64,000 nucleotides of DNA from Podarcis vaucheri (taxonomy: Eukaryota): assembly GCA_965113315.1 (NCBI GenBank), contig OZ220368.1; one strand, given 5' to 3'. A program made the translations under genes and the position numbers. The notes beneath the pieces are model-generated. The model was given only the letters and a program-made list of their open reading frames with translations, had not been told where the DNA came from and ran no database searches. Shown here in pieces: positions 3,375-48,615 of the stretch. Numbering within the stretch: position 1 is the first letter of the stretch; every line of letters begins with the position of its first letter.

Positions 3375-4079
3375 GTAAACTTGATATAACAACTTTCAGT
3401 TGACAGAATGACTCGGTAGCAAACCTTGCCAACAGATAACTAAAAAAGGATTACTTCGTTTGAACCTTGCTTTGTTAGTCTCCCACAGCAAATGATTTTG
3501 CATTCATTTTTAATTTCCTGTAATATTGACCGCCTGCATTTTTTCAAAAAGGGCTTTTAAATTTGATTAAACTTTAAGGGATAACTCTACTGTTCTTTGT
3601 CCACTGTCAACAAAGATCAACAGGGTTATCCCCTATCAACCTTGCTCAGACATGAGCAGCTGAGGTCCATAAGAGGAGGACTCTTGCCGTACATCACCAT
3701 ACTGTACTGCTAAATTTACTAAATAGAGGCTTCTTAAAGTCTGAAGCAAGAAGCACATAATTTTCTTTTCCACAATCAAAAACAGCTGGATAAGTTTTTA
3801 GTTGGCAAATGCTGAGCTGTGGTAGAAATTCATATTATTATTTGGTTTGATAAGCTGTGTGTTTCCCTTGTGAATGTCGTTATCTAGTGAATGTCATTCA
3901 CCAAAATTGGCAAAATTAAATGTCTTTTGCAAGAGGGCCCAGTTTTTATTAAGAAATTTAAGGAAACAACAAGCAAACATGACTTAAAATTAATAAATGT
4001 CTCTTTTTAACTACTGTTATTCATTTAGACTTTCTTACTTTGTCATACTTAACTCATTTTAATGTACTTCTCTGTTAAG

Positions 4080-4816
4080 GCAAAAACGGATGGCTCAGAA
4101 AAAGTGGAACTGCAGCCGTATGTCAATGTTCCTCTTCCCAGTGTCAATCAGGATGATGAAGGGAAGGTGGTGTCATGGGCACTCTTAAGAGGTCGGGCAG
4201 ACCCTAATCTAAATGCAGTGAAAATTGAAAAATTATCAGATGATGAGGAAGTAGATATTACAGATGAGGTGGATGAGCTACTTTGCAATGTACCTCAGCA
4301 AGAAGCTGGAAAGTCTGATTTATTAGATATTCCAAAAAGTCCATCAGGGGAGAGCAGCTGGACAGAGCCTATCTTGGATTCTGCTGGACACATGCCTTCA
4401 GTTCTGTTAACATCAAGATTAATTCCAAAGCCAGAGCACAAGCACAGCACAGTTGAGAGTCTAGAGACTGCAATGTCATGCTCTGAGAACAGTGGTCATG
4501 GAACCATGGTTTCAGAAAATCAGAAATGTGATGGGAAAGGAATTTCTGATGATACCGATTGGTTTCCTAATCCAGAGAATTGCAGAGAACAGACAGACTT
4601 CACTGAAAACAGTCTTCTTTTCCATCCTTCCAACCAACTGGAAGAGGAGAATCAGATAGATGCAGAGGAGCTCAAGCCACCAGATCAAGAAGTAGAAATA
4701 GATAGACAAACCGTACTAGAAGAAGAAAAGCAGGCAATACCAGAATTTTTTGTGGGACGACAAGCCAAAACACCTGAGCGCTACCTGAAAATTAGAAACT
4801 ATATTTTGGATCAGTG
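4080..4816 (+). CDS. MYSM1: MYSM1 large exon (acidic linker and start of SWIRM domain)
   Basis: ORF 4062-4820 contains RGRADPNLNAVKIEKLSDDEEVDITDE and EFFVGRQAKTPERYLKIRNYILDQW; ttaag acceptor, gtaag donor. Confidence 0.95.
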
Positions 4817-5523
4817 GTAAGCAATATAAGCCTGTTGGAAAATTATACAGTGAGGGGAATGTATGCAATGCAATGGTGTGGATATGTAATATCCTTCCTT
4901 TACGCAATCCATTTTCCAGACAAGTGATAGCCCGTTCCTTTATGGACTGAAGCTGGTTGATTGTATCTTCCTCCTTTGGAGCTTGACCAGGGTGGGTCAT
5001 TGGTTAGCTCAAAATTACACATGTTGTGTGTTGGCTTGCTTAGCCCCCAAAGTAGGGAACCTGCTAGACCCTTGTCATTTAGCCCATAAGGCTGTGTTGG
5101 CCAAGCCACATCCACGTGTCCTACACCTGATGTCATATATGATGTCATGTATGAGGCATGAAAAAAATGTGATTGAGCCGAAGGGGAGCCCTGCACGCAG
5201 CAAGACAAGGAAAGTAGCTGATTGTTGGGGCTCACATAATGCATTGCCTTTACCTTCATGGTTTGATTTCAAAGCATGTGGTCAAAAATGGGACATCTGA
5301 CATGAGGTGATGGATAGGTGGGCAGCTGTGCCCACTTGTTAATACTTGGCCCATGGGGGGTTGGGAGATAAGGCTCTGGCCTAGCCCATGATAGACGACT
5401 TCTGACCCAGGTGGGCAAATCTCTGCATGAGTGGAATGGTTCATGTTTAATGGACTCCTTCTACTCCCACTAATGGGATACATCAAGAAATATCAAATGC
5501 TGCTAACTTAATTGCCCAGGTAA

Positions 5524-5808
<285 letters not shown>

Positions 5809-7135
5809 TAGAAACTAAAACCAGAAAATAAATGGGGGCACATTTAGAAACATATATTTTAAAATTCCGAACAGAAAGAGATGGAAAATATGGTTGTTGG
5901 TTGAGGCAGAAGTTAGTCCAGAAGGTACCATGTGGCAATCCTTCACTTACTCTTAATTATAAATTTTATCCCAAATATTGTCCTTCTACTTTGTAACGTA
6001 TATACCAGATTTAAAAAATGTGCTTATGTAAAAAAAAAAAAGGACTACTGTTTAATATCATTCCTGTTCTTTTGAGTCTCTTATGGTTACCATGGCTGTA
6101 GTGGTGTCTAGAAACATGTGACTTTCTTGGACAGGTGATGATTAGTCCTCCTAAGTGTTAGATCTGTTGCCATGGCAGCAGACTGTGGCCAGCTAACCTC
6201 CTTTGACTGCCTGCATAGATGCTCAGAATCTACATGTAGTTTTGTTTTTGTGTCCATTCCCCTCTGATAGGCTTCAGAAACTCTTCCTTTCCCTCTTTTC
6301 TTACTCAAGGTCCTTGTCTGTGGGAAAGCTAGAACAAAAAGCAAAGCTTTAAGCTCAGACCTATCCTCCAGTCATGGTCAAATGGATCCCCCCAAGAACC
6401 ACAGAAGCTATACTGGGTCAGCTAAGAACTGAACATAGCTGAATGGAACATAGTTGAATGGCAAAGGGAAGCTCTGCCATTATGTGACCAAGTTTGCTTG
6501 TCACATTAAGTAATGCTTCTAAGGAAACTATGGTTTGAATACTGTGAACAAGCATCTTGCTAGTTCACGCTGTGCAAAAGTGTCTCTGTGTCTATTAAAA
6601 TACTTACTAAACGTCCCTGAGGGACCCAGCCACCTGATCTACACCATTTGGGCCTAGCTTCATGTTTGGATAAAGCCATTCAATATTTTTCCACATTAAA
6701 AAAGGACAACTCTTTATCCTTTCTTTTCTTTTAAGGCTTTGAGAAATATTTGGACCGGTACTATATATTCAGTCAATGGAAGCTAAGAGACATCTGCTGA
6801 AATAGTGTATCGTTCAATATGGCCTAAATGCCACTGCCACCTGATATCATTCATGTTTTTTTCTCTTAATTTTCCTTCTAGTGTTGTCTGTGTAGCTCCC
6901 TTGGCTTGGTTGGCTCAGGTGACTAAACATTAGGTGGCATCATTGTTTTGTTTGTGAGACACTTACTTAGTCATGTCATGACTTTCATGTTGTGAAGAAC
7001 AATTTAAAAGATTTATCTTTAACTCTTGGTGATTAGAATTTAAAGACATTCAAGAGTAAAGCCATCATTTGCTTGTGACAACCAGGTAGCTCACTTCTTA
7101 CGCATCTGAGTTAGTTCTCTTGCTCATTTCTACAG

Positions 7136-7239
7136 AGCAGGCAATATATAATAGACCACAGCAAGTTGACAAAATTCGACCCAGAGAAGGCAAAGACACT
7201 ATAGAAGCATATCAGCTTGTGCAGCGTCTACAGTCTATG
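7136..7239 (+). CDS. MYSM1: MYSM1 exon ([10 protein letters not shown]...LVQRLQSM)
   Basis: tacag acceptor, gtagg donor; frame-consistent. Confidence 0.93.
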
Positions 7240-8037
7240 GTAGGATGGAAATGTAATTTATGTGCCACATTTCTTCTTTTACTGCCTTTTGATCACATTC
7301 CTGCACTGTGTGACTATAGTATTGCTGATTGGGAAGCCAACTAGAGTACCTTTTCTCACAAACATTGCTTAGATCTTTCTGGGCTAAATAAATTATGTCT
7401 TGGAGTTCTGCACATACTACTATTTTTGTACGGGGCTTTTTAAATTATACATTGCTTTCAGGAAAGAATGTTTGTCAAATACTTAAAAAGTGGCTCTTTG
7501 GATCCAGTGCATTTCACTTCATTGACTGAAACCAAATGAACTGTCTTTTAAGAAATCAAGTGAATAGGAAAGAAATGTATATGCAAGGTGTGTCTTTATG
7601 TGTATGTACAGCAGCTGTAATCAGACACATTTTTACTTTGATTCAGCATATACTTTCAGGGGTTGTTAAAGCTCCACTGAGTATCTCTACCATAAGTAGA
7701 AACCTTACAAATGATTGGTGCATAGAAGCAGAAGTACTGGATGCTGTGCTTTATGGAGTGAATAAATGGCAGTGCTGGTTCTTCAATAAAGCATGTTTCT
7801 GTTGCCAGCTTGGAATTGGCCCACATCATTTTGGAGTATAGTAATGCAACGTTTACTATGGGCCCAGGTGGCTGATGGCTTGACCTTGACACAAGTTCAA
7901 AAAGTAGGTTCAGACCAGTCCAAGTAGACCAGTGATCTGTATTCAGAAGCTTATTGTGAGCATGCCAGTCCACATTCTGCTACTCCACAACAATATGTGA
8001 ATTGCTTATACAAATACTGCTGACTTTATGCCCTTGA

Positions 8038-8214
<177 letters not shown>

Positions 8215-9065
8215 TGAAACGCTTTTATTTAATTATGTGAGCTGTAACTGTAACCCACCCTTTGAGGTTTCAGGGCAGCTTACAAAAATTTAAACTTAAG
8301 TAAAAATACTAAAATATTGCAAAATAAAACTAAAAAGTTCCACATTTTGTAACCTTTCCTCTTAGGGAAGTTTCTCCAGCTCCTTGATCATTTTGTTATT
8401 GTGTCCTAAAACATGATTCAAGAGCCAATGACCAGAAGTTCAGAACCAGAGGTCGTCCATGAAATTTATATGCTGTAGGTTTAAAACAGGCAAAAGCATG
8501 ATGTGTGGAATAAACTGTTGCAGCAGTAGCATAGGTAAATAGATCTAAAGTTTGTGAATGAAAGGCCTTCATGTAAATAGGAGATAAAATACTTGGGTAT
8601 GGGACTTCTGTGTTTCAAACCAGCATACTTCTTAACGTCAGATACCACTGAGAAGCCATCTTTGCTGTTTCACGAGCTTCCCTAGAACATCTAGTTGGCT
8701 ACTCTGAGTGCTGAAGTAGGTGAACCTTTCAGTTTGACATACTATAGCTATACAGTGGTCTTAACAGAAGCACTATGTAGCAGGTAGGAAAGAAGGACCT
8801 TGTGTAGAGGTGGAGTGACAAAATCTTATGCTGTTTCATAGTTTGCTTGAACTTGGAACAGTAAATGGGAAAGTGAAGGAAGCTCTTCCAGCTTTCTATA
8901 AAAACAAACAAAACAGCTACTTTTGGTCTTGGTTCCCTGAGGCTCATCTTAACAGTGACAGCAGCTGTGGCACCTACTAAATTCAGGACAACTGAAGTTC
9001 AGTGTGCTTAAGCCCACTGATTGAACTTCAGGCTGTTTTAACTAATCAAGTATTTTTGTTTTTAG

Positions 9066-9154
9066 CACCTTTCTGCTGAGGATCTAGCTAAGAGGAGAGA
9101 AGAGGAGAAGCTGAAACCACCGAAAGCATCTAAAGGACAAAGGCAGCCCAAAAG
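9066..9154 (+). CDS. MYSM1: MYSM1 exon ([29 protein letters not shown])
   Basis: AG/GT borders; frame-consistent. Confidence 0.92.
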
Positions 9155-9460
9155 GTTTACATTTTTTGTATATGCCTACAATATATTTTTTAAAAAGTAG
9201 CTTATGTTACTTTCAGTATGATTCCTACCTATCAGCAGCACTTACGTTGTACTACTTCACTGAGCCTAAAGCGCAGTTCACAAATGCGGAGATATTCCTG
9301 TGACTCTTAAAAACTACCACATAAGTCTACAAGTTCAAACAATTTGCTAGTTTTGTATATAGTAATTAAAACTACAATAGAAAAAATGTGATTTTTTAAA
9401 AAATGAGTTTCCCCCTTTATTAAATGTATATTTTCAGAGCAATTTTCTTTCATTTTATAG

Positions 9461-9515
9461 TTCATTTGATCCCTTTCAGCTGATCCCTTGCTGTTCCTTC
9501 ACAGAAGAAAAACCA
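9461..9515 (+). CDS. MYSM1: MYSM1 exon (SFDPFQLIPCCSFTEEKP)
   Basis: DPFQLIPC motif preceding the MPN domain; AG/GT borders. Confidence 0.92.
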
Positions 9516-9595
9516 GTAAGTATGAGTTAATAAATAAGCAAGAGCACACCTTTGTTTACTTAAGCAGGCTTTCCTTATCATTTTTATCTTTTCAG

Positions 9596-9646
9596 GAGCC
9601 ATTCCAAGTAACGGTAGCTGCAGAGGCACTTCTCATCATGGATTTG
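9596..9646 (+). CDS. MYSM1: MYSM1 exon, MPN domain start (EPFQVTVAAEALLIMDL)
   Basis: AG/GT borders; follows an 80-nt intron. Confidence 0.93.
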
Positions 9647-10476
9647 GTAAGAACTATACTTTATACCTATTTTCCCGATTTGTTTGGTTCACTTCAAAGC
9701 ACAAAGGGAAGGTTTGATCCATGCCAAAACCACAATTACCCCTCCATATTGCTGCTGTTGAGACTACTGCTATACCATCTGCACCCTTTAACTGGCCAAG
9801 CTTTTTTTCTGGCTTACCTAAGGCATGGGTGATGGCTGTAACAGCCCATAATTTCTTGTTTCTGTAGAAGATAATAACCCTGAGAAAATCTCTAAACAGG
9901 TATGGGAATAAGCTGTCATAAATGTGATGCTGCTGCACAACAGTATAATGCTTCTTATGAGCGTGGGTGATTAGTCATGCCAGAAGAGAAACTCAGAATG
10001 TTAATATAATCACCTGCAAGGGAAAAGTAAATTCTATCTTTTAATACCTTTCTTGCTGAAATGGGGGAATATTTGTACTTTTGCTTTTTTCATCTGTTGT
10101 CGATCCATAAGTAACTGTTGGAGCCTCAAGGCCACTATTTAGTGCTTTTCCTACTAAGTAAAGATGGCTGTGTAATTTTTGATCTTCACAGTCCCTTATG
10201 GGAGCAACTGACTTGATTTTTATCAGCACTGGCAAAAATGCCCAGGTAATGACCTGGTTTAGCCCCAGGAAAAGAGAAGGAGTACATAAAGCTCATTTGT
10301 TCACATAGCACTAAACCACAGTTTAGGGTTGGATCTAAGTGCAGCATCTGTGTAATTATTGGTGGTAAAGCAGAGGTATGAAGAGCTTTCAGGGTGTGGG
10401 TGGGTGGGGTTATCATACATGGTTTCACTACAGAACTCTTCAAAATATCCAAATGATTTTTTTCTTATGTCTTTAG

Positions 10477-10551
10477 CATGCCCATGTTTCAATGGCAGAA
10501 GTAATAGGACTGCTAGGTGGAAGATACTCTGAAACTGATGGAATAGTTGAA
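10477..10551 (+). CDS. MYSM1: MYSM1 exon ([25 protein letters not shown])
   Basis: [11 protein letters not shown] motif with the catalytic Glu. Confidence 0.95.
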
Positions 10552-10579
10552 GTAAGTATCATGCATGTTTAAAATTCAG

Positions 10580-10830
10580 TAACATGAGAGCAGGCCTTAT
10601 CTGGGGTGGCTCCCAGAATGTGGAATGCCCTTCACCTCAGAAGATTGGCTGGTGCTCACTGTATTGCCCTTTCAGCACCAGCTAAGACCAATCTACTTTT
10701 CCAAGGTTTTAGGGAATATTTTTTTTTGAAACTACAGTATTTTTAAAAACTTTATTATTATCTGGTTTTATCTGCTCCTTTGGGACATTATTATAATATT
10801 TATGGTTTAATATGTTTGTAACCTGAAGTA
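10580..10830 (+). mobile_element. L2 LINE 3' fragment (old)
   Basis: GGCTCCCAGAATGTGGAATGCCCT...CTAAGACC resembles the L2 ORF2 C-terminal region. Confidence 0.5.
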
Positions 10831-10913
10831 ATAAACATAAACACAAAACAGCCTTAATCTAGTCTAGTGCAATAGGCATTAAACCAGCCTATTAGGAGGA
10901 CCAGATCTTAGTA

Positions 10914-11230
10914 CAGTGGTGCCTCGCAAGACGAAATTAATCCGTTCCGCGAGTCTCTTCATCTTGCGGTTTTTTCATCATGCGAAGCACGGCTATTAGC
11001 GGCTATTAGTGGCTATTAGTGGCTTAGCGGCTATTAACGGCTTAGCGGCTATTAACGGCTTAGCGGCTTTAAGAAAAAGGAAACAAACTCGCAAGAACTC
11101 GCAAGACGTTTCGTCTTGCGAAGCAAGCCCATAGGGAAATTCGTCTTGGGGAACGACTCAAAAAACGGAAAACTCTTTCGTCTTGCGCGTTTTTCGTCTT
11201 GCGAGGCATTCATCTTGCGAGGTACCACTG
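10914..11230. mobile_element. Tc1/mariner-pogo (Tigger-like) MITE with internal minisatellite
   Basis: TIRs CAGTGGTGCCTCGCAAGACGAA / TTCATCTTGCGAGGTACCACTG; TA on both flanks; internal GCGGCTATTA/GGCTTA repeats at ~10989-11068. Confidence 0.85.
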
Positions 11231-11771
11231 TACCTGCTCATGTGCCCACAGGGATTAGAGGGAAACAGGATTTTCTTATGATTGATGGGGGCATCTTTGA
11301 GTAGACTGGATTAACCCCAGAGGCTATTGCAGCATCCATATATAAGCATCCTTTAAGCATCTTACTATATCCTTGTAATACTTTTCCTGTAGTCAGTATG
11401 GAATTCAGGAAGCTGCTAGTTTTTTGAACAATGGAGCAATCCTACACCCAAGAAGCTGGTTCAAAACAAGGTATGAGTGAAGCTGGTGAAGAGTATACCA
11501 GATTTAAACTCTCTTCAGGAGCAGGGCTACATATGGCTGAGTTGGCTTAAGTGTAGCAGAGGGGAAACAAGCCTTTAAGATAGTGTTTGAGTTACATCAC
11601 CCTTTTTGCTGTCTTAACTGTATCTCTTGCTATGCCAGTTTAAGTTCAGCCAGGCTCTGGGGGAAATATGCCAGCATATCTCTTGCTGGACCACAAGGAT
11701 GAGGAGTTATGTCATCACCCTTGACTACCCTGAGAACCTCCTGGCTCAGGTGACGTTATGCTGGATCCTAG

Positions 11772-12128
<357 letters not shown>

Positions 12129-12350
12129 TGACTTTGCTTTATTGATGTTTAATTTAATAACTAGAAATGATGTAAATGGTAACATTTCAAAGTACTATTC
12201 AAATAATTTATTGACCCTTTACTTTAAAGTGACTACTAATTGTAAGATGGGGGTTTTCAGAAAGCAAGTTTGCATTGCATTCTTGATTATTTTCATAGAC
12301 ACAAACTTTAAAAAAATAAAATTATTGCCCTTTTATATTTTTCCATACAG

Positions 12351-12483
12351 AGCTATTTCTCCAGAGGTGGGTCAATGTTTGTTGGTGTGATCATAAGTCC
12401 TTATAATCGAAATAACCCTCTTCCGCATTCCCAGATTACCTGTCTGGTAATCAGTGATGAGACCAGTCCTGATGGATCCTATC
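12351..12483 (+). CDS. MYSM1: MYSM1 exon ([44 protein letters not shown])
   Basis: MPN C-terminal strands; AG/GT borders. Confidence 0.94.
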
Positions 12484-14301
12484 GTAAGTGGTTTTTTTTT
12501 TTTTTTGTTTTTTTTAAATATTCTTAATACCTTTCTGCTTCCTATCTTCATCATTTAAGTTACATTTTGAAAGAGAAAAAATTCGGTGACTGGTTAGACA
12601 AGGGAAATAATATATATAATTTAAAACAAAGAATAAATATAATACAAGAGGCTGCAGCCCTAACTCTGGTTACTTCCAAGAAAGTCCCATTGGATCCAGT
12701 AGGGCTTCCTTCTGTGTATACATGGTTAGGATTAGAAACTTTTGGAATATAAGATTTGCACTGTAAATAATATGGGGGTGTTTTACTGGAACGGAGACCA
12801 TAATGTTAATCCTCACGGAGAGCAATCACTGAATGTTTTAGGGGGTTGTGGTAAGGGTGTCTTTTAAGAAATGAAAATAGCAATAGCACAAGATGATCAG
12901 GAATCAAGGATTCATTTGAATCACTGTTAAGAAGAGAAATGTTTCTGGGTGATACCCAACATTAGTTAGAGTGGAATTGTTGAGATTAGTGAATCTAAGT
13001 AATTTATGTTCACAGACTGCAGTGAATCTACTCTGCAGTAGATGGATATTGCCTTCTGTGTGTAGCATTCCATGGCCTGGTTGGGATGGAACCATGGAGT
13101 CAGGATTTAAGGGTTCAGATTGCACAAATTCCTTGCACCCACCTCATGCATGCAGATTCCCCAACCCCCCTCTACCCAGATGCTGAAAGGTAGATTAAGA
13201 ACACTCCTGGGTTTGGTTTAACTAGAGTTAATAATGATAACCTGTAGATAGAAGGGTCAGGTAGGGAAGGAAATTCATGCACATGGGGTGGGGGTGGAGG
13301 CAGCATGTAGATTTGAGACTATTCCCTGAACACTAGCTCCTGTTACAATTAATCTGGCCCAACTGTTTAACCTTGTGCTCCTCGTTTCTACTTGTATACA
13401 ACTTTCCTCTATGCTGCAAATTGCTTATCATATAAGTGGGAAGGGAGGGAATCTCATCAGTATCCATGAAATGTCTGAGGATAGGAAGCACTTTTTTTCT
13501 GAATTTGAATAATCTAGTTAAACCTGAATCTTAGAAAATACTATTATTCACAAAGCAATTTTGATGAATGTGAAGAAAAAAATCTTTTAAAAATAGAAAC
13601 CTGATCATATGGAATAGGGTGAAAATCTAAAAGTGCCGAAGTTAGTCTTTAATCTCTCGGTGACAAAGCTGGTCTTGAAATCCCTCTTTTGATATTATCA
13701 TTAATACTTTCCTTAGCAGATATCCTGAGTATGAGGACAATTGCAGTTTGAATAAATGAAAATGCAGATTTATCTTGCTGTGGAAAGAGGGGGAGGAAAA
13801 AAAGTATTGTCAATTTCAATCATTGAAGGTTTACATGTGCAAAATGTTGTGCATATGAGAGAGAGAGAGAGCAAAACAGCCTAGTGCTCTCCAGATACGT
13901 TGAACTACAACTATCAGCCCTGGGGTAATGGAAGTTATAGTACAAAACATATGGAGGGCACCCAGTTGGGGGAGCCTGGCTTAAACAGACATTTGTCATG
14001 TGATACAGGACCAGAAATAGAAGTCCAGAGCACTTTGAATGAACAGGAGTTGACCCGTGCTTCAGATCAAAGTCTTACTTTGCATTCAAACAAATATTTC
14101 TACTTCACAAAATATTGCTGTTAAACCTAATTCTGGGATTGAAGCTACTTCAGGCCACAACTAGGCTAAATGGGCTCACTCTTGATGGTACATTGCTGTT
14201 TTATGTGCACATATTTTTGCTCTTCCCAGGGATGTAAGATACGCATGTCAAAAAGTAGGAAGTGTAATATTCCATGCATAATATGTTTTAATGGCTTGCA
14301 G

Positions 14302-14407
14302 GGCTGCCATACAAGTTTGAAGTGGGACAGATGTTGGAAGAACCTAAATGGGAATTAGTACTGGAAAAAACACGATGGATAATTGAAAAATACAGGATGT
14401 CTCATAG
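14302..14407 (+). CDS. MYSM1: MYSM1 exon ([35 protein letters not shown])
   Basis: AG/GT borders; frame-consistent. Confidence 0.92.
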
Positions 14408-14529
14408 GTGTGTGGCTGCTTGCATTTCAGAATCTTGTAGTAAGCCAGTTCCAAATTACTGTATTTGCATTTCAATAGAGAATGTTTTTATATATCGACT
14501 GATACAGTGTTGTCATGTTTTTCCAACAG

Positions 14530-14587
14530 CTGGGTGCCGATGGATAAAATCTTCCATAGAGATTCAGATTTGACCTGTCTGCAGAAG
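14530..14587 (+). CDS. MYSM1: MYSM1 exon ([19 protein letters not shown])
   Basis: AG/GT borders; 58 nt. Confidence 0.92.
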
Positions 14588-15373
14588 GTAATAATTGTAA
14601 ATACATTTCCTTCTTGTCTATAAATATCTAAAGAAGTCTAATCTTGTCTAGTTATAATAGAAATCTTAAATATTCGTGGAACTGGGTTGGAAGCAACAGG
14701 CATATGCAAAAGCAACCCAAATGTAACTAATGTTTGTTGGCTACTAATGTTTTGTGTTTTCCTTCAGGGTAGCTTGTCGTTTTGGTTTTTGCAAATGGGT
14801 TTCAAAATGTTTTCATAAAAAATGTCTTTTGATTTAATTGTTACATTTGAGGATGGGCTACGAAGTAGGATGTTTTCCTGTCATGGGTATCATTTTAGGT
14901 GCCTGTCTCTTAATAGTGGAATGGGTGTCTTACATAGGCAGTGAAAAACAAATTTTAGATGGTGCTGTGCGGAATTGTTTTTCTTGGACTGTAGATAGAG
15001 ATATCCACAAATTAAAGGGGTTCTTTTGCTTTGGTCACTTTTGCATGGATTTTGGTAGAGGATACTTAGAGAGTTATGAAAGTTTGTGACAAGTTGCACA
15101 TATAATAGTACATGTTAGTAAATTTTAAAGTTCAAATGTGTTAACACACAGTAGGATTATTCACTCCTTTGACAGTTCTTTGAACAGAAGCCAGCTGTTG
15201 GATGAATGAAAGATCTGTGTAAGTGGTCAGATACAGTTGAATTAGTGCTAACATATATAAAGCAAGTCCTCAGGGTATTCGGATTAAGGAATACCAATAG
15301 ATTGGTGATGGCTTTTCTTCCTAAATGTTACTTCAATGCTGGTTTGTTTGTTTTTCCTTTGATCTGAAACTAG

Positions 15374-15538
15374 TTGTTGGAGTGTATGAGGAAGACTCTA
15401 GGCAATGTGGCAAATAGTTTCATCGCTGAAGAATTCCTGGCACAGCTAGAAAACTTATTCCTTTCAACATACAATAGTGAGAAATGGAATGATACTACTG
15501 AAGAAAATAGCATGTGTCCAAATGACCTGCCAATATGA
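15374..15538 (+). CDS. MYSM1: MYSM1 terminal coding exon ([10 protein letters not shown]...PNDLPI*)
   Basis: Completes the LQK|LL LxxLL motif; TGA at 15536-15538. Confidence 0.9.
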
Positions 15539-16932: not shown

Positions 16933-18936
16933 TTGTGTGAAGATGATTTCAATGTTGTTTGGGTTCAAATTTCTGTACATAAAAAAATGAAAAAATCCCA
17001 CGAACATTGCAGATTTGTTTTTCTCTCATAGATTTGCATTTAGGAGCATCATTTTGTATCAAATAAGTACTAAGTGTCCTGGGGTTCAGCTAAACAGTAC
17101 AAGATCAATTTCAATTTCTAATTGCACATATTTCAAACTTTGGGTCAAAAAGCCAGGCAGACTTTGTTGCTTGTTCGTTGTGTGTAAATATTAAGGTTTT
17201 GCACCGGCCACAAGATTTGGTTTTCATCCTGATTTGGCATTTATTTGGAAATTGGACTGCTTCATAGTTTGTCTGAGTCAGTTCTGGGTCCAAATTTGCT
17301 TTAGAAAAATGAAGCTTAAGTCGGCCTATCGTTAATCAAAAGTGGCTGAGGATTTTCTTCTTTTCTTTTGACAGAATTAGATAACATCTTTAGCCAAAGT
17401 AGCCCCTCCAGAGTGCATATAGCCTGCCAAATCAGACAAATTGGTCAAGGATTTATTGTGCTGGACACCTTTACAATTTGATATATTTTTTAAAAAAGAG
17501 AAACATCTATAGTTTTTTTTGGGGGGGGGAATTGGATGAAATCTACAGGTATGACAGACTCTTCTGAAGGAATGTATTCTGCTAAATTGCGTAAGGATCA
17601 CTCCAGTGGTTTTTCTGAAAGGGGAAACCATTTTACAGTTTGGGAAAGGTGCCCCTCCGGTAAGAAACCTGCCCAGTCGCAGACAAATAGTGCCAGGGGG
17701 CTTTGTGGTAGGCACATTTAAAGTTGATTTTTGTGGAGAACTATACATTGCAACCACTTGGTTTGGTGTGCAATAATTTTTAATGGAAATAGAAAAGGTG
17801 CTCCATGGAAAGTAACCTGCAAAATTTCAAGCAAACCGCTGTAGCAAAGAGGACAGAACAGAAAGGAGCAAGGTGATAAATTTGACATCCCTTCACCAAA
17901 GCACTGTGATTGGAGAGCCTTGGTATAATAATTCCCTCTGATTTCAAGTTAGGCGTGTCTGTCACAAAAGAGCTCTCCACATCCTAGTGGACCTTGAGGA
18001 AAATGCTTCAGTTTCTGGAGACACGATGCCATAGTTTAACATCTCAATCTCTGAAGTGTTTCATCAGTCCTCTGTTTAGGATACACTGAAGAGATGCCCC
18101 TTTGGCTCAGACAAGCCCAGAATCTTCCTGAAGCAGCCCCACTTTGGTTCTTCATTTGGGAATTACCTGAATTGTTTGCACACCCCTAATAAATACTCCG
18201 TCGTTACAGCATTTAGCCCTCTCTGACACAGGAAAAGAATCAGTTCCTAAACAATTATGAGCAGGCTGTTTGCAGTATCTCTTTGCAAGGGCTTTATTTT
18301 GCGAAGCAAAATAAACCGTATGACATCTTTATTTTACAACATCTGAAGATGAGAATTATCACTTCTTAGAACCATACATTCTGGCACCAGTGAGCAAGTT
18401 CAGGCTATTTTTATTTTCCTACCAATTTCTTTTTTCTGGGGGGGGGGGAATTAAAATTTTGTGTAAATATTACAATGGCTGAAATTAGCTGTGGTTGAAA
18501 CCTGGATGAAGCCAGCAGAGGGAGCTATGTGACAACTAATTTAAAGGAGTGACTCCTTATAATGTCCCAGTTAACCCAACATTGAAATACTTTGGGCTTT
18601 TCAATTACTAGTACCTACATGGAATCATAGTTGGAAGGTGCCATATAGTCCAAACTCTTGCAATTCATGAATCTTTCACCCAATGTAGAGGCTTATATGG
18701 ACAGAAATGCTCTTTCTAGAACTACAACAGTAAAGTGCTGAAGTAGTTAGCATTTTACCAGTTATTGCAGCTACTTGATTCTACCCCTCGGATTTCTGCT
18801 AATAATAATAATTAATAAAACAAACACCTATCTGTCTCGGTGTCACCCAGCAAAATATTAAAAACACAATGAAACATCAGCCATTAAACACTCCCCTGAA
18901 CAGGACTGCCTTTAGATGTCTTCTAAAAGTCAAATA

Positions 18937-19165
18937 CAGTGGTACCTCAGGTTAAGAACTTAATTTGTTCTAGAGGTCCGTTCTTAACCTGAAACTGTTC
19001 TTAACCTGAGGTACCACTTTAGCTAATGGAGCCTCCCGCTGCTGCTGCCGCACCACCACCGCACGATTTTTGTTCTCACCCTGAAGCAAAGTTCTTAACC
19101 CGAGGTACTATTTCTGGGTTAGCAGAGTGTGTAACCTGAAGCGTCTGTAACCCAAGGTACCACTG
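18937..19165. mobile_element. Tigger-like MITE, nested in an L2 3' relic (~18800-19210, - strand)
   Basis: CAGTGGTACCT...AGGTACCACTG termini with TA TSD; same family at 41425, 42967 and 43940. Confidence 0.85.
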
Positions 19166-24700: not shown

Positions 24701-25947
24701 TTGGGGGGAGGATGACTATTTAACCAGACATGCCTGCTGTTTGGATCTTAGCCTCTCTGTCTGCTAGAATGCCACCTATGAAATAATTACTCAGAGTTTT
24801 GATTGCAAAATGCCTCCTGAAACTTCCCTGATGATATTAATCATTGTATTTTTAACTTTGCAAAGCTCAAGTGAAAGTTACTGTGTCTTATATTGGCTAA
24901 GCTTGGAACATTTCAAAAGGAGCAGGTTATGCAGTGACCATCCACAAGGAGCAGAAACATGTTTTGTTTTAAAATGAGATGAAAAGCCAATCCATCAAGG
25001 ATGTGAAATAACACCAATTTTGAAGATTGTATTGGACAACAAGAACCCTACAGGAAAGACTAGCTTAAGCCGCATGCCCTTGTGGTTTGACACAAAAATG
25101 GGCCTATGGGTCCCTGGAGTAATGTGTTTTATGTGTACAGAGGGCAGGTTTGGATGGCCATAGCAGAGGACAATGGTAAAGAATCCTGAAACCTAATAGA
25201 AGAAGAAACTGTAATGGATGTTATTGTGTTAAAACAGCCTGTACCAATATGGTGCCCTCCAGGCGATGAAACTACAACTCCCATTAGCCCCAGTGAGTAC
25301 AGCCATGCTGCCCAGAGATGATGGGAGTTGTAGGCCAAAACACTTGGAGAGCACCCTGGTCAACAAAGGCTGAATGCCCCTCGCTGATATAGAGTTATTT
25401 GTGCTGTTGTTTTCAATCTTAATCCCGCTCCCTGATGTAATTTCAGGACTGGACAGGGCCTCTCCATGAGGGTCAAAGCAACAGACATCAGTGGTATGGA
25501 GAACAGCATTTCCTAAGAGTTGATTGTGAAATGATGGCCACTTCACACATTACACACAGGGAAAGACACTCACAGGGCACACTTAAATAGGGAGCTATGG
25601 CCAGTCATAACTACTCCAATCCACACTTTTGGTGTACTGTATGATTGAATTTTATTAGGTATACACTTTTAAAAAGCGATAGAAGGCAGTGAAACCCCCA
25701 TTAGAGGAAGGCAGTTACCGTGGCTGGTGGTGGGAGTTGTCATCCCAACAAAATCTACAGAGGACCAGGTTGGGATTGGCTGCTTTGGGCATTCCAAAAA
25801 TTTTAGGTATAACACGGCTTCCAGAACTGTCCTATTGTTTGCTCACCCCCTCTGTCTTTCTTACCATAGTCTGGTGGATTATCCATGGAAATGGCTCAGC
25901 ATTACATCTTGACACATCTTGAATCACTTGACACATAATGAGGATTC

Positions 25948-25990
25948 TAAAAAGAAAAGAAAAGAAAAGAAAAGAAAAGAAAAGAAAAGA
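25948..25990. repeat. (AAAAG)n microsatellite
   Basis: Direct reading. Confidence 0.95.
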
Positions 25991-26267
25991 GGGTGTTCTG
26001 GAGGCTGTGATCTCTTTCACTTTACCTCCTGTCTACTATGAGTACTGACCACTGGAGCTACTGTTTGTCTTCCCTGTTTAGTAGGCCTCCTGGGCTGAAC
26101 AGAATGGAGGGCTGACTGGGCTTGGCCTCACAGTAGCCTCTAACCCAGCACTTATGCATAGTTTGGCCCATGGGGTAGGCACGTTTCTATTTGCAAGAGC
26201 TTAATGTAGTATTGGTTTCTGTGTTTCTGGCATGATGTGCTTCCTCCTTCAGTGGGAGGAAAGAAAA

Positions 26268-26370
26268 GCAGGTGGTGGTGGTGGAAGTCTTGGCCATTAT
26301 TGCTGGAATTACCTCACTTGTGATTACCAGGAGGCGAGGCCGAGGGTAGGGAAGTATGAGAAGGCAGAGA
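26268..26370 (+). pseudogene. Degenerate TACSTD2/EPCAM-like fragment (transmembrane helix plus cytoplasmic tail)
   Basis: VVVVEVLAIIAGITSLVITRRR, then frameshift/stop, then GKYEKAE; aligns to 27404-27500 (52/66 and 19/22 nt identical by hand count). Confidence 0.85.
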
Positions 26371-26429
26371 GTTGCTGCCACTCCCTACTGAAGAAGGCGC
26401 AGCTCTCTTGGTCTGTGGGTTTTCTGTGT

Positions 26430-26535
26430 CACCACACACCTGCTTTGTTTGAGCGTCACCAGCCAGACTGGTTGGGCAGGTCCGATGGTAGAAAGAGAGG
26501 CAGCTGTCCCGCCCTATCACTCAGAAACCGGGAGG
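26430..26535 (+). promoter_or_regulatory. Putative TACSTD2 proximal promoter
   Basis: CACCTG E-box (~26437), GRHL-like AGACTGGTT (~26465) and GC box CCCGCCC (26508-26514), 80-180 nt upstream of the ATG. Confidence 0.35.
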
Positions 26536-26614
26536 CTCTTGTTGTGGATGTGTCTTGTCTTCAGGCTGCTGTGTTGCCCTGTCTCTCCCTAAAGACCTCT
26601 TTTGTTCATCCTCC

Positions 26615-27541
26615 ATGGAGTCTGCTTTTGGGGCTGCCCTGGTGTTGATGCTTGTGGCCACGTCGGCCGCCCAGAACGACTGCTTTTGCTCAACGAATAA
26701 CCTGGCGTCTTGCAGTTCGGAATCCGGCAGCTGCATCTGTACGGCACGCGGTTCGAACCAGAGGCTGGACTGTTCAACGCTGACTCCAAAATGTCTGCTG
26801 CTGAAGGCGGAAATAAAAACCAAAAGAGGCAGAAGTTTTCCCAGGCCCGAGCATGGGTTTGTGGACAACGATGGACTTTATAACCCAGAATGTGATGCCA
26901 TGGGCTTCTTCAAAGCCAGGCAGTGCAATCAGACAGATACTTGTTGGTGTGTGAACAGCGCTGGGGTAAGGAGGACGGACAAGGGGGATCTCAACATGAG
27001 GTGCAACGAGCTGGTCAGAACAAGCTGGATCTACATTGAGATGAAGCACAAAGAGCGAAAAACTTCCTTGTCTGAATCAGAAGTGGCAAACAGCTTCCGA
27101 CAGCTCATTGAAAACCGCTATATGCTCCATCCGAAGTTCATCACAGCTGTTGAGTACAAGGAGCCATTAATCCATATCGACCTAAAGCAGAACATTTCGG
27201 ACAAGTCTTACAGAGATGTTGACATTGCAGATGTAGCTTACTACTTTGAAAAAGACATCCAGGGTAAACCCATTTTCCCACCCGATAATATGTTTGGTCT
27301 CTATGTCAATGACGAACCTCTAGATATTGAAGAAATCCTAGTATACTACGTTGATGACAAACCACCAGAGTTCTCTATGCAGCGCCTGACAGCGGGCATC
27401 ATTGCAGTGGTGGTGGTGGTAGTCCTGGCCATTGTTATTGGGATAACTGTGCTCGTGGTTACCAGGAGGCGGAAGACGGGCAAGTATGAGAAGGTTGAGA
27501 TTAAAGAGATGGGAGAAATGCGAAGAGGACAACATGCATAA
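26615..27541 (+). CDS. TACSTD2: Tumor-associated calcium signal transducer 2 (Trop2), intronless, 308 aa
   Basis: Kozak-like tccATGG; signal peptide, Cys-rich N-domain, thyroglobulin type-1 domain (DNDGLYNPEC...CWCVN), TM helix and KYEKVEIKEMGE tail; single exon located between MYSM1 and OMA1. Confidence 0.96.
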   Translation: MESAFGAALVLMLVATSAAQNDCFCSTNNLASCSSESGSCICTARGSNQRLDCSTLTPKCLLLKAEIKTKRGRSFPRPEHGFVDNDGLYNPECDAMGFFKARQCNQTDTCWCVNSAGVRRTDKGDLNMRCNELVRTSWIYIEMKHKERKTSLSESEVANSFRQLIENRYMLHPKFITAVEYKEPLIHIDLKQNISDKSYRDVDIADVAYYFEKDIQGKPIFPPDNMFGLYVNDEPLDIEEILVYYVDDKPPEFSMQRLTAGIIAVVVVVVLAIVIGITVLVVTRRRKTGKYEKVEIKEMGEMRRGQHA

Positions 27542-28218
27542 GTGCCTTAATTTGACTGTAGAACTAAGATTTTGACATGGGCAGAATGGAAAGAAGACGA
27601 CAACATTGCTACCATGTCTTTTGAAGGTGGGGAGGGCACTTGGTTTTCTTTTTTAAATTAATGTTTAATCAAAGATAAAAACAACAGCTTTGTAAAACGT
27701 CCACAATTCCAGATTGGAAAAGTGATTGGGATATAGTTAGCATTTCCCTTTAACTATAGTGTACAATGTGATGATAATAATAATAATAATTTGAGATGAA
27801 TATCAATGTGTTAGGGACAAAATCCCTGTACTGTACCCACTCCTGAACTTTTCCAGATTTGTAGTTTTTTAAGAAAACAATGTTCTGTAGCTACACGGTT
27901 AGTTCAATTTATTTTAACTGCATTTCTACATCTTTTTGGGGTGTGTTTATGTGTAGCTATCCCCCAATCCCCAGCCCTGTTCTCTTTGGCCCATGCTGCT
28001 AAGGTGTGTGTGTTCTGTCTGTGCATTTGAGACGGACTTTCTATTATTAAAAGTGTTGGAAAGGTTCGCTTCTTCCATTTAAACCTGATTGTTTTTTGTC
28101 TCTGATCTAAAATATTTCTTTTGTAAAATAGTAATACCTTCTTAAATGTCAGCGTTTACCATGGAACTGGTGTGTGTCTGTGTGTTTGTGTGTGTGTTTA
28201 TAATGTAATCTTCATTGA

Positions 28219-28224
28219 AATAAA
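28219..28224 (+). terminator. Candidate TACSTD2 polyadenylation signal
   Basis: AATAAA about 680 nt after the stop codon with T/GT-rich sequence downstream. Confidence 0.55.
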
Positions 28225-29139
28225 TTTTCTTAACTTTAATCTGTTGCTAAGTTTCATGCTGTGATTCTAAAGGATTTTTCCTCCCAGCATAGATCAGGCT
28301 GCCTGTGGTCCTTAACTATCTCCTGGTGTTTTAATGTAGGGGTAAGCTTTTTCTGTCCTTGCTGAATTCCAGCTCTGGGAAAACTACTTGCCAGTCATGT
28401 ATTGGGTGGTGTGATATAATCAAACCATTGCCAGCCATTGCCATTTCTTGGAAAGTATCATCCGTTTTCATCTGGTGACAGCAGCTGCTGGTAGTAAGTG
28501 CACTGCTTGCTATCTAATCTTTGCCATCACAGTCTAGCTGGCAAGAAACCCCTGAAAACCTCTCTACTGTTTTAATAGACCTAAAATGACTCAGTACAAC
28601 ATAGTTGCATATGCTATAGAGTGTACTCCTCTTGTTAACTAACTTGTCCAGGCAAAATAGGATCTTTCATGCTATTGTGACACTATAGATAGGTCATCTT
28701 AGCCACAAAGCCTCTCCCCCAAAGCAGTAAGTCACTACAAGCTATTAAAATTGTCATTACAAACTATGGTAGTCGTTACAGGCCACCACAATCTTTGCAC
28801 CATAATCTGTAACCACTGCTGCTGAATGAACAAGCATTCCTCCATATAGCTGTGAGTCACATATAGCTGTAAGCACAATGTTCCTTCGTTGTAGAGGCTG
28901 TCAAGTCAGAGGTACCCAAGTGATCTTAGAGCTTCTTTAAGATGTTCTGCAGAAAGGTTGCAGAATAGTTGAGAACATCTGTACTTGGTCCTGCTCTTAT
29001 TTTTTTCTTTTTTTCTGACAACAGATATCAAGTCTATTTTGAGCAGGGACAGAGTTATCAAATAAGCCAAAAATGCCTAGGGCCCATGGTTTTCATAATG
29101 TGGGTGGCAATGTTGCGAACATACAGAATACTCCTATTT

Positions 29140-29475
29140 CACTCCCCCAACAAGCAAGTGGGAGCAATGAACCTTGGTTTAGTGTTATGTCCAAACCAGG
29201 GATTGTGGTTTGTTTTGTTCCAAACAAACCATGACCATGATTTGAAGCCAAGGTTTGCTATTTACTCACCAATTGCAGTTTATACATTTTGTTCAGAATT
29301 TTATTTTGTTCAGAATTTTGTTCAGAATTTTATTTTTGTTTTAAAATATATTCTTTGTATGCATCTCTGGATAAGATCAAATAACACCCCTGATACACAA
29401 AACAAACCACAATCCCTGGATGGGACATAACATTAAACCAAGGATTGTGCTCCTGCTTACTAGCAGGGAGGACTA
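29140..29475. mobile_element. Old MITE with long inverted arms
   Basis: ccttggtttagtgttatgtcc..ccagggattgtggtttgtttt versus aaacaaaccacaatccctgg..ggacataacattaaaccaagg; related AAACCATGGTT-type repeats near 33900, 45400, 59350 and 60500. Confidence 0.6.
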
Positions 29476-37497: not shown

Positions 37498-37559
37498 CAT
37501 TCCATCTCTCCGGACTGCCGGTAGGTAGGTGCAGAATCACATCTCTGAATCTCCTCCAC

Positions 37560-38330
37560 GCTCAACTCGCTGACAGTAAACACAGCGGCTGGAGGCGGCC
37601 TTCTCTCGGTCGCGAAACAGGGAAACTCCGCCACCGATTGGCTCCCTCCCCAGCCCGGAAGGAAAGGCAAGCGGCCGCCCCAGCCGTAGAGCGCAGGGGG
37701 AAGAGGCCTGGTGCACGGGGAGGGCGAAGGGCGCGCCTCTCCGCGGCCAAAGGGTCCTAGAGGTCGCCATTGCGTCTTTACGCGCGGCGCCCCTTCTTCT
37801 CTCCAAGGGTCGGGCGGGCGTGGAGTAAGGGGAAAGCGCTGGTATCTCAAGCCCCCCCCCTCCATTACGTCTTCACTTGCTGGAGGGATCGCCAGCCAAC
37901 GGAGCAGGGGATCTTGCTCCTCCCCTCCTCCGCGCCTCGTCTCTGACTTGAGCTTTTGGCAACCTCGCCTCCTCTTCCTGGAACCAGTTTGTTCTGTCGC
38001 GTCTGGTAGGTGACGGGAGTGGCCATGGCGGGGGAAAGGCAACCAGCCTTGTGGACGCACAGCTCCCGCTCCTCTGCAGGCGCGCGTTATAAGGAGGCGC
38101 CCCGCTTGCTCTCTATTGGCTCCGGTTTCCCTGCTTCTGCGTCTTCTTCGGAAGGCGTTTCCCCTTCCTGCCCTCGCAGCGTCTCCTGTTGACGTTGGCC
38201 AAAGAGGCTCAGGTGGCGCAGGGAGGCGGCGGGTCGGTTGCCCCGCGGCTCTTCTGCGCCAAGGGAAACCTGGGTTCTCTCGCATGGCTTGAAGCGCAGG
38301 AGAGAGGGTGTGCGTGTACGTTGCATCGTC
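37560..38330 (+). promoter_or_regulatory. OMA1: CpG island / OMA1 promoter and probable non-coding first exon
   Basis: Only CpG-dense block in the window; reverse CCAAT boxes (~37637, ~38116), YY1-like CGCCAT/ATGGCG, ETS CGGAAG; candidate donors near 38006 and 38213; 2.5 kb upstream of the first coding exon. Confidence 0.8.
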
Positions 38331-38433
38331 TCTCTGGTCCCTCAGGCCTCCACTTTGTGACTGCTTCTGTGGGACAAAGCCACCCAAGTCACAAGGCGAA
38401 CCCCCTGATATGTACTCATATAGCAGATAATAT

Positions 38434-38619
38434 GTTCTTGGTATGAGCTTTCGTGTGCATGCACACTTCTTCAGATACACAGTATATATATTGTGTATCT
38501 GAAGAAGTGTGCATGCACACGAAAGCTCATACCAAGAACTAACTTAGTTGGTCTTTAAGGTGCTACTGGAAGGAATTTTTTTATTTTGACTATGGCAGAC
38601 CAACACGGCTACCTATCTG
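38434..38619 (+). mobile_element. Penelope-like element remnant with inverted partial terminal repeat
   Basis: CTGAAGAAG..GAAAGCTCATACC..TTAGTTGGTCTTTAAGGTGCTACTGG..CAGACCAACACGGCTAC; 48-bp inverted duplicate; flanking near-duplicate TAGCAGATAATATG/TAGCAAATAATATG. Confidence 0.75.
38495..38532 (+). ncRNA. Minimal type-I hammerhead ribozyme motif
   Basis: GUAU-CUGAAGA-A-GUGUGC/GCACAC-GAAA-GC-UC^-AUAC; identical copy on the - strand at 38441-38478. Confidence 0.6.
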
Positions 38620-41268: not shown

Positions 41269-41424
41269 GTAAACATTAATATTGCTCTGCTACACACTAT
41301 AGCAGTATAGAGTATACTACATTGTTGCAATGTAAATTTAGATGCAAGCTTAATAGGATACTTTGCAAACTTCACATGAGACTGTCTGGCATGCTCATAA
41401 TGTTGGAAAGGAGCCTTGCAAATA

Positions 41425-41652
41425 CAGTGGTACCTCAGGTTAAGTACTTAATTCATTCTGGAGGTCCGTACTTAACCTGAAACTGTTCTTAACCTGAAGC
41501 ACCACTTTAGCTAATGGGGCCTCCTGCTGGAGCCCGATTTTTGTTTTCATCCTGAAGCAAAGTTCTTAACCTGAAGCACTATTTCTGGGTTAGCGGAGTC
41601 TGTAACCTGAAGCGTATGTAACCTGAAGCGTATGTAACCTGAGGTACCACTG
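41425..41652. mobile_element. Tigger-like MITE
   Basis: CAGTGGTACCTCAGGTTA / TAACCTGAGGTACCACTG TIRs, TA TSD. Confidence 0.88.
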
Positions 41653-42966: not shown

Positions 42967-43178
42967 CAGTGGTACCTCTGGTTATGAACTTAATTGGTTC
43001 TTAACCTAAGGTACCACTTTAGCTAATGGGGCCTCCCGCTGCCGCCGCGCTGCCAGTGCACGATTTCTCTTCTCATCCTGGGGCAAAGTACTTAACCCGA
43101 GGTACTACTTCCGTGTTAGCGGAGTCTGTAACCTGAAGTGTTTGTAACCCAAGGTGTTTGTAACCCGAGGTACCACTG
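42967..43178. mobile_element. Tigger-like MITE
   Basis: Same TIR family, TA TSD. Confidence 0.85.
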
Positions 43179-47301: not shown

Positions 47302-47995
47302 GTAAGTAAAAATCGAACACCAAGAGATGTAATAATTCGGAAAGAAGCTACTGACAGCGCATTCCTGTTGTCCTTGGGAGGACGTCCCAGAGGCTGAAGG
47401 ATTTTGTGCCTCTCCCTCTTGGCGGTGAGGGTGGGGGGGTCATAGCTCAGAGGCAGAGCATCTTCCTTGCTCTTCCAGATTCAATCCCTGGCTTCTGCAG
47501 GGGGGGGGGGGCTGGGAATGTCACCAAATCTGAATCCCTCAGGAGGAGCCTCTGCCAGTCAGTGCAGACAGTATTGGGCTTGACTTGGTACCGCTGTCCT
47601 TCCTCTGCCATTATTGCTTTCACAGTAGAGAGGGCAAAAAGGTGTTGGGGAGAAGAGGAGCTTCTGGGATCCAGCCTCCCCCAGTCCACATACACGGGTC
47701 GAGAGAAAACATGTCCTGAAGTTTGCGTGCTGATTTTCTCTCCTTTTCTGACCAACGTGCAGGGAAGTCTCCCTTCCTCACCTCGCCCCCCAAAAGAAGT
47801 GTGCTGACAAAAAGGAGGAATAAAGAAGAAACACAACTTCTCTTTTTCCCTCCATTCTGTCTCTCCCCCCCCTCCCAATTTTTCTGCTCTGCTGGTGCTG
47901 GCCTGGCCAAGCTGTGGGTTCACCCCCACCCCCACTTTGGATTGCTCTATGAAACAATTTGTTTGCAGTATTATTTTTCCTCTCTTTGCCTGCAG

Positions 47996-48103
47996 AATGG
48001 ACAACTGTTTGTTTTCACTGGTATGCTATCTGCTGTGTCAGATATCAATGAGCTGTCTTTCATTCTGGGACATGAACTTGCTCATGCTGTTCTGGGACAC
48101 GGG
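47996..48103 (+). CDS. OMA1: OMA1 exon with HExxH zinc motif ([12 protein letters not shown])
   Basis: HELAH at 48071-48085. Confidence 0.96.
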
Positions 48104-48508
48104 GTATGTATCCTGTTTTAAAAAGTGACGTTGCCAAAGCCCTCTGAAACTAAACACATGGTCATAGGTGACCAATGTGGACCAATGTGGAGACCACCAT
48201 ATTTGACTGGAACTACCCAGCGATGCTCACAGCCTGCCTCTTAGGGCTAATAAGCTTTGCTCCAAACTCTGCATCTGTGATGTTAATTGAAGTCAGAAGT
48301 TAGGGGTGTGTCGTACAACTGAATAGCTCTTTATAGGCCTTCCTTACCCAGAGTTGGTGCTTTCCAGCATCCAGTACTTCTTCTGCCAGCATTGTGGCTT
48401 CATAAAGTGTTTCTCCAAGTTGGATCTCCAGTTGGACTACAACTCCCATAATCCTTAGCTAGCAGGATGTGATGGGAGTTGTAGTCCAGCAACAGCTGGT
48501 GAACCAAG

Positions 48509-48615
48509 AAGAAGAAGAAGAAGAAGAGTTTGGATTTGATATCCCGCCTTTCACTCCCTTTAAGGAGTCTCAAAGCGGCTAACATTCTCCTTTCCCTTCC
48601 TCCCCCACAACAAAC
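48509..48615 (-). mobile_element. Squam3-like SINE 3' fragment nested in a hAT-like MITE
   Basis: Matches ~848-950; TSD AACCAAG (48502-48508 and 48613-48619). Confidence 0.8.

Follow-up and report, generated by a model that had tools for sequence, protein, structure and literature searches.

The region upstream of TACSTD2 (Trop2) in Podarcis carries a short, dead copy of the gene's own 3' coding end, which is probably an old templated insertion, copied in cis and dead on arrival. In the 64-kb stretch of DNA analysed here (the window), positions 26272-26370 of the plus strand (99 nt) form a frameshifted same-strand copy of TACSTD2 27407-27500, and 245 nt separate the end of this copy from the TACSTD2 ATG (26615). 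The first-pass annotation had reported a same-strand copy of the 3' coding end about 245 nt before the ATG, and it was right as to coordinates, strand and both translations. In the origin that we favour, DNA synthesis would have stalled or broken at a hairpin tip within the promoter of TACSTD2, about 95 bases would have been borrowed from the coding end located 1.1 kb away, and synthesis would then have returned, the whole being a single slip of replication or repair. The mechanism would thus be a template switch, and the copy presumably never coded. The features of the locus are collected in the Table.

Table. Coordinates of the TACSTD2 locus, the partial copy and the neighbouring genes in the window.
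Feature	Positions	Strand	Remarks
Upstream neighbour with SWIRM and JAB exons	4053..15527	+	Pfam; the end coordinate is a likely last-exon stop
Candidate constrained proximal promoter around the copy	26106..26528	.	No listed substitution versus a second Podarcis; boundaries set post hoc
Left arm of imperfect inverted repeat	26243..26258	.	13 nt before the copy; also in a local hairpin
Defunct copy of the segment coding for the transmembrane-plus-tail part of TACSTD2	26272..26370	+	Transmembrane part 26272-26337, tail part 26349-26369, stop 26347-26349 in the original frame
Right arm of inverted repeat	26381..26397	.	10 nt after the copy; 15/17 columns pair
GC-box-like CCCGCCC (at 26508) and main RNA 5' end (about 26530)	26508..26530	+	
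Intact intronless TACSTD2 (Trop2) coding sequence	26615..27541	+	308 aa
Donor segment in the TACSTD2 coding sequence	27407..27500	+	Trop2 residues 265-295; 1130-1135 nt downstream of the copy
AATAAA (28219); last position of the longest RNA contig (28239)	28219..28239	+	
Downstream neighbour, peptidase M48 exon	47720..48118	+	Pfam

The Trop2 protein encoded in the window is 98% identical to that of Podarcis muralis and 89% identical to that of Zootoca. The Pfam scan of the window took in the first 150 of the 178 open frames on the plus strand. From their domains and synteny, we take the upstream SWIRM/JAB gene to be MYSM1 and the downstream M48 gene to be OMA1. Several other features of the window were recorded. 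In the 3' UTR of TACSTD2, 5 extra bases are present at 28142-28143 in all four runs examined, and the window has there either a lineage-specific deletion or an assembly error. A MITE-like element with 47-nt arms, 94% complementary and 178 nt apart, is located just downstream of the gene (29172-29443). A CpG-rich island at 37501-38500 (30-40 CpG per 500 nt, GC 57-63%) is likely the promoter of the downstream M48 gene, and beyond the M48 exon lies a local direct duplicate of about 343 nt (52566-52908 versus 56619-57398, 90% identity), whose second copy is split by about 440 nt. An inverted 103-nt pair of 98% identity (848-950 versus 48513-48615), 48 kb apart, is likely a young repeat. Finally, a dispersed repeat of about 200 nt is present in four copies with 70-85% identity (18931-19158, 41419-41657, 42997-43183 and 43936-44183).

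When the gene was compared with the window using blastn, the copy was the sole non-self match below E 0.01 (E 1.2e-12, 74.7% identity over 99 columns), and the local score of copy and donor was 78, against a maximum of 35 for 500 dinucleotide shuffles. Aligned by codon, copy and gene are identical at 70 of 87 bases (80%, 29 codons), and the 17 differences are distributed 5/4/8 over first, second and third codon positions. The annotation had put the identity at about 80% by hand, with many third-position differences. The frameshift and stop that it mentioned are also found: the copy has 11 nt (26338-26348) where the gene has 6 (27473-27478), and this surplus of 5 nt shifts the frame and brings in a TAG at 26347-26349. 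The donor is located in cis, on the same strand 1130-1135 nt downstream, and the lengths of copy (99 nt) and donor (94 nt) agree within 80-120% of the parental length.

The similarity has sharp limits. Identity along the two diagonals falls from 17/20 to 3-4/20 at both ends of the copy. No 5' extension was detected in anchored alignment tests (P 0.55 and 0.62), none of 228 Trop2/EPCAM proteins matches 26371-26491, and the sequence past 26370 matches no TACSTD2 DNA. A tblastn search of the window with these 228 proteins, of the kind proposed in the annotation and with the coding region masked, found only the site of the copy, which 212 of the proteins match (next best E 0.03). By blastn, tblastn with the 228 homologs and anchored alignment, no other piece of TACSTD2 was detected in the 64-kb window. 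The copied stretch is only about 95 bases, or everything else has been lost. Two other signals, of 26371-26614 with the sequence following the donor (P 0.03) and of 22-26 kb with the 3' UTR (P 0.02), were rejected; both come from base shuffles that are blind to low complexity, and they have no blastn support. The copy's own translation, searched against proteins of 78-2000 aa, gave 20 candidates and none at E 10, which is weak evidence. There was no Rfam match at E 1 in 25400-28400, and none of 26 candidates from a viral scan was confirmed. A 138-aa frame (26232-26648) crosses the copy and overlaps the start of TACSTD2; no transcription of its 5' part was seen in the runs examined. This frame was rejected as a gene: among 1.84 billion representatives, the 147-aa frame matches only an unrelated repetitive ant protein (33%).

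Among the runs listed, the stretch or part of it is present in at least 20 runs from 9 studies. Data were taken from 4 of 24 listed runs, namely DNA run X11 and RNA runs X15, X18 and X23. In X11 a single contig spans 25665-26689 with a depth of 11.2, similar to that of its neighbours. An independent contig that bridges the copy at single-copy depth means that the copy is not an assembly artefact, an eventuality raised in the annotation and not borne out. The low-complexity GTG run with which the segment opens could favour chance similarity. However, the match remains at E 5.4e-8 when this run is dropped from the blastn query, and masking of the run, named in the annotation as a possible refutation, leaves the copy standing. 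Together with the bridging contig this rules out chance or artefact, the probability of which is practically nil. The copy is genuine, single and common to a lineage about 2% divergent, and it is fixed in at least two Podarcis lineages. It has one match in the window, its genome-wide uniqueness being judged from single-copy read depth.

To which gene the copy is related was analyzed with bird EPCAM transcript L001, obtained from a metagenome scan, as the DNA-level EPCAM outgroup, and with squamate EPCAM compared as protein. The scan, made with a Trop2 alignment, returned 9 loci, all of them bird or fish EPCAM, with no TACSTD2 upstream region among them. Relative to L001, 20 sites join the copy with Podarcis TACSTD2 and 7 join it with EPCAM. 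Another 6 sites are private, and at 4 the three sequences all differ. Third positions of copy and TACSTD2 are the same at 21 of 29 codons, versus 8-14 of 29 in deep comparisons (P 4e-4 for a 40% baseline, 7e-3 for 48%). With the bird EPCAM outgroup, the branch of the copy has 6-10 changes and is not clearly longer than that of the gene (7-11). Going from the copy's codons to known proteins, the fewest base changes are 4 for P0042, a lepidosaur Trop2, 6 for the Trop2 of Elgaria and Hemicordylus, and at least 8 for that of Podarcis; for EPCAM they are 8-9 (turtle) and 15 (Podarcis and Zootoca). At segment positions 2, 10, 14, 18 and 22, the copy's residue is found in 24, 22, 23, 16 and 19 of 25 squamate Trop2, and in 0, 1, 0, 0 and 0 of 28 squamate EPCAMs, 26-28 of which carry another residue. 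These counts concern present-day sequences (25 of 31 squamate Trop2 and 28 of 29 squamate EPCAM could be parsed), grouped by our own id lists. Such site and residue patterns show the copy to be kin to squamate TACSTD2 rather than to EPCAM. Modern lacertid EPCAM, 15 changes off, was rejected as donor, the copy having squamate Trop2 residues. The transmembrane segment of P0042 is the closest known to the copy. P0042 has its own branch and an unsettled position among lepidosaur Trop2 in a 53-row tree, and could represent an unsampled family or a second Trop2 lineage. A further observation concerns P0043 of Acipenser ruthenus, a 526-aa model with two EpCAM units in a row, which suggests tandem EPCAM copies fused by annotation in the sturgeon.

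Some clues nevertheless point to EPCAM. At segment position 28 the copy has Ala, where Val is present in 25/25 squamate and 60/60 mostly mammalian Trop2 and Ala in 97/105 EPCAMs; its GCA codon is also that of two bird EPCAMs and one fish EPCAM. The Ala at position 11 is found in 1/25 squamate Trop2 and in most EPCAMs and mammalian Trop2, and 12 exact bases around it are common to the copy and bird EPCAM. This residue could be an older TACSTD2 state. The 3' limit of the copy coincides exactly with the end of a bird EPCAM exon followed by GT (L008), in agreement with the read-through models P0218, P0185 and P0210. The EPCAM exons concerned are numbered 7-9, and EPCAM has eight junctions. By our own arithmetic, with these eight junctions and a 3-nt tolerance, one of the two copy ends would fall on an EPCAM junction by chance in about 1 case in 10. 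Kinship with TACSTD2 requires that the Ala at position 28 be a reversion, or else that the last 7 bases be target DNA and no part of the copy. If these 7 bases were target DNA used as imperfect homology, both the Ala at position 28 and the splice boundary would be accidental. The annotation had noted KYEKAE in human EpCAM. This likeness is real, and the end of the copy at an EPCAM splice donor speaks for the same side. The missing intron on which it had remarked is uninformative, because TACSTD2 itself is intronless: the position of the EPCAM intron inside the segment (L008) is intron-free in the copy and likewise in TACSTD2.

The flanks of the copy are inverted with respect to each other. An inverted repeat pairing in 15 of 17 columns was equalled around only 0.23% of 9072 random 99-nt intervals; it was noticed after several looks at the flanks. 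When the copy is removed in silico, the flanks fold into a stem with 23 cross-junction pairs and with its loop at the insertion point. In a post hoc comparison, the energy of the cross-junction duplex (-16.1 kcal/mol) was reached in 0.14% of 2761 controls and, where GC was matched, in 0.1% of 910. With 35-nt flanks the z-score of the whole hairpin is only -1.9, and lengthening the flanks to 45 nt brings it to -1.0; other choices of the boundaries give local hairpins. With the copy in place, the folding of the region does not surpass that of shuffled sequence (z -0.8). The left arm shows self-complementarity and a purine/pyrimidine bias. No second copy of the inverted arms was detected in the window, nor extra depth in DNA run X11, and the arms could themselves be a product of the same template switch. 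At the left junction the homology with the donor consists of GCAG (4 nt), and at the right junction 5 of 7 bases agree; such short microhomologies are often due to chance. There is no poly(A) or A tract after the copy, which stops in codon 296 and contains no 3' UTR. No target-site duplication was recognized, the longest direct repeat between the 44-nt flanks being 5 nt; where the arms end on their outer sides is poorly defined, and duplications erode with age. Another local inverted repeat (26363-26380/26394-26412) overlaps the last bases of the copy and the right arm, and the longest RNA contig starts at 26397.

The main RNA 5' end follows the copy at a distance of 160-260 nt. In the stranded raw-read RNA run X23, of which about 12% was read, depth is 0 across 26077-26438, and 13 molecules end at 26530, where the adjacent depth is 29. 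The RNA-like contigs of X15 and X18 start at 26397 and 26506 and are unspliced through the ATG; such contigs cannot reveal the true start, and other tissues may differ. RNA coverage of the copy was found in none of the three RNA runs examined. Use of the copy as a spliced exon was considered and rejected: acceptors near 26253 and 26565 are unused in the 11 joints listed, and the RNA contigs are unspliced through 26565. Rare use as an upstream exon could have escaped these joints. The CCCGCCC motif just before the 5' end resembles a GC box. The upstream region was compared within Podarcis only (window and run X11), with 33 listed substitutions in 1664 nt, i.e. a non-coding divergence of 2.0%. 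For the X11 contig, 16 of 19 differences are listed, and the other 3 were inferred to be at contig ends or in a skipped repeat. The 423 nt of 26106-26528 have no listed substitution whereas 8.4 were expected, and the chance of so long a gap is 0.009 (post hoc). The 300 nt before the 5' end have one substitution (P 0.018), and the copy itself has none versus 2.0 expected (P 0.14). Podarcis is a genus with extensive introgression, as described in the consulted portion of PMC8114931. A single comparison in such a genus hints at constraint on the promoter but does not prove it, and the copy is not set apart by it. The copied bases would now lie within a constrained promoter as a passenger. The copy may also be part of the TACSTD2 promoter, with a putative regulatory role for the copied bases. 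The suggestion of the annotation that recycled coding sequence is present in the upstream region agrees with the position of the copy, which is upstream of the transcript and in promoter position.

At third positions the corrected divergence of copy and gene is 0.34 (95% interval 0.14-0.75), whereas the first and second positions together give 0.17 (0.08-0.34); both intervals are wide. A third-position divergence that is twice that of the other positions is as expected if the copy alone has been neutral from the start. Splits within Podarcis date from 4-16.7 million years (PMC8114931, in the part consulted). From these splits and the 2.0% non-coding divergence to X11, a rough rate that ignores ancestral polymorphism and introgression, the age of the copy would be roughly 70-290 million years; the copy is likely older than the lacertid crown. 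Both lacertids have Val at positions 10 and 18, as does Rhineura at position 10, and the copy has Ile at the two positions. That Ile is retained at both positions suggests that the copy predates those changes in Trop2.

A cis template switch is not the only conceivable origin. The same strand, the upstream place and the kinship with TACSTD2 would all agree with the remnant of a tandem duplicate, in which a unit of about 1.13 kb (promoter to codon 295) was duplicated and the upstream copy then lost all but its last 100 bases; P0042, 4 changes from the copy, could in that case represent a second lineage. However, two events are required, the inverted flanks are left unexplained, and there is neither a further remnant in the 64 kb nor a species with two Trop2 among the best 120 of 867 matches. 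Silent change is not above the neutral expectation, and the 5/4/8 pattern is that of one neutral and one constrained branch. With no other part of the gene detected in the window, the tandem relic of the annotation is not supported, and we consider such an origin unlikely. A short reverse transcript of TACSTD2 mRNA that filled a nearby break, or an aborted retrocopy, would have had its donor within the transcript, and for an intronless gene DNA and RNA donors look alike. Against such a patch are the absence of poly(A), 3' UTR and a recognizable target-site duplication at the copy, and also the landing 1.1 kb from the parent, which would be expected of a DNA template switch and not of a retrocopy. 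We regard it as improbable.

The copy could also be a fossil, either of the original retroposition of EPCAM to TACSTD2 or of another EPCAM RNA insertion, second or circular, that stopped at the tail exon. It would then have persisted because it became promoter, with part of it replaced through gene conversion by the adjacent coding sequence. The exact end at an EPCAM splice donor, the EPCAM-type Ala at positions 11 and 28 with the 12-nt match to bird EPCAM, and turtle EPCAM being as near by amino acids as Podarcis Trop2 (8 changes) would fit such an origin, and the low divergence of the region could have preserved old sequence. But the copy shares 20 sites with TACSTD2 against 7 with EPCAM, has sauropsid-Trop2 residues at positions 2, 10 and 14, and is 15 changes from lacertid EPCAM. 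Past 26370 there is no EPCAM or Trop2 match, and hence no back-splice junction. The coincidence with the exon junction has a chance of about 1 in 10, and if the last 7 bases were target DNA, Ala and boundary would be accidents. An EPCAM origin seems improbable. The same small weight is given to the proposal that the segment is a fossil from the amniote ancestor of the retroposition that founded TACSTD2, left by an intermediate, permuted or circular, that stopped at the tail-exon donor, and that it was retained for more than 300 million years because it gave the new retrogene part of its promoter. The second or permuted retro-insertion of the annotation is accordingly weakly supported at best, given the kinship with TACSTD2 and the lack of poly(A), of a recognizable target-site duplication and of a back-splice partner at the copy. 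That the copy is nearer to squamate Trop2 than to lacertid EPCAM, and that no other piece of the gene was found, leaves both a tandem paralog and a second EPCAM retro-insertion unsupported.

If the copy was indeed templated in cis, it is a tidy, old and germline-fixed case in which a coding end was placed in its own gene's promoter, with the hairpin that possibly caused it still readable. It stays a curiosity unless regulation of the gene by the copied bases is demonstrated; they would then be coding sequence that its own gene reuses as a promoter element. How retrogenes gain promoters is a long-standing question. Were the copy a fossil of the retroposition, it would represent an insertion intermediate of a textbook retrogene and show how the promoter was gained. 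TACSTD2 is known as an amniote retrogene of EPCAM, formed between the separation of amniotes from amphibians and that of mammals from reptiles (PMC10797630, PMC7563481, portions consulted), and the host gene is the same here, intronless and with MYSM1-like and OMA1-like neighbours. The upstream partial copy was found here, and the consulted portions of PMC10797630 and PMC7563481 make no mention of it. Nor does such a copy appear in the titles and abstract openings of the top literature matches, in a collection made up mostly of open-access journals. A processed pseudogene from LINE retrocopying differs from the copy in having a 3' poly(A) tail and the parent's 3' UTR. CircRNA-derived pseudogenes, defined by a reversed exon junction in the part of PMC4897178 consulted, resemble the copy in that a late-exon segment, without poly(A), stands ahead of earlier sequence and stops at the edge of an exon of the spliced paralog, and one of those in PMC4897178 overlaps a regulatory site. 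The copy differs from them in having no reversed exon-exon junction, and its donor looks like intronless TACSTD2, with no exons to back-splice. Gap-filling captures in animals are mostly single-copy and often less than 5 kb from the parent, two thirds of them with 1-36 bp of microhomology (PMC8277862, portion consulted). Single-copy Pack-TIRs of that study share with the copy the single copy, a same-chromosome donor at less than 5 kb, possible short junction homology, inverted flanks and an insert as long as its donor. In contrast to them, the arms here have no counterpart elsewhere in the window and do not stand out by depth in X11, no target-site duplication was recognized, and identity is 75-80% (74.7% gapped, 80% codon-aligned), under the 90% cut-off for young Pack-TIRs. 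We liken the insertion to Pack-TIRs by its way of working and do not assign it to the class, whose flanks are transposon ends. A parallel in mechanism is provided by the template-switch and MMBIR insertions (PMC7954356, PMC8421209, as far as the consulted portions go). There, too, a short stretch is copied from a template close by, and secondary structure is present where the switch occurs, ape template switches being associated with secondary structure (PMC7954356). Those cases are recent and come from apes or tumours, whereas the insertion described here is old and fixed, a coding end copied into the promoter of its own gene.
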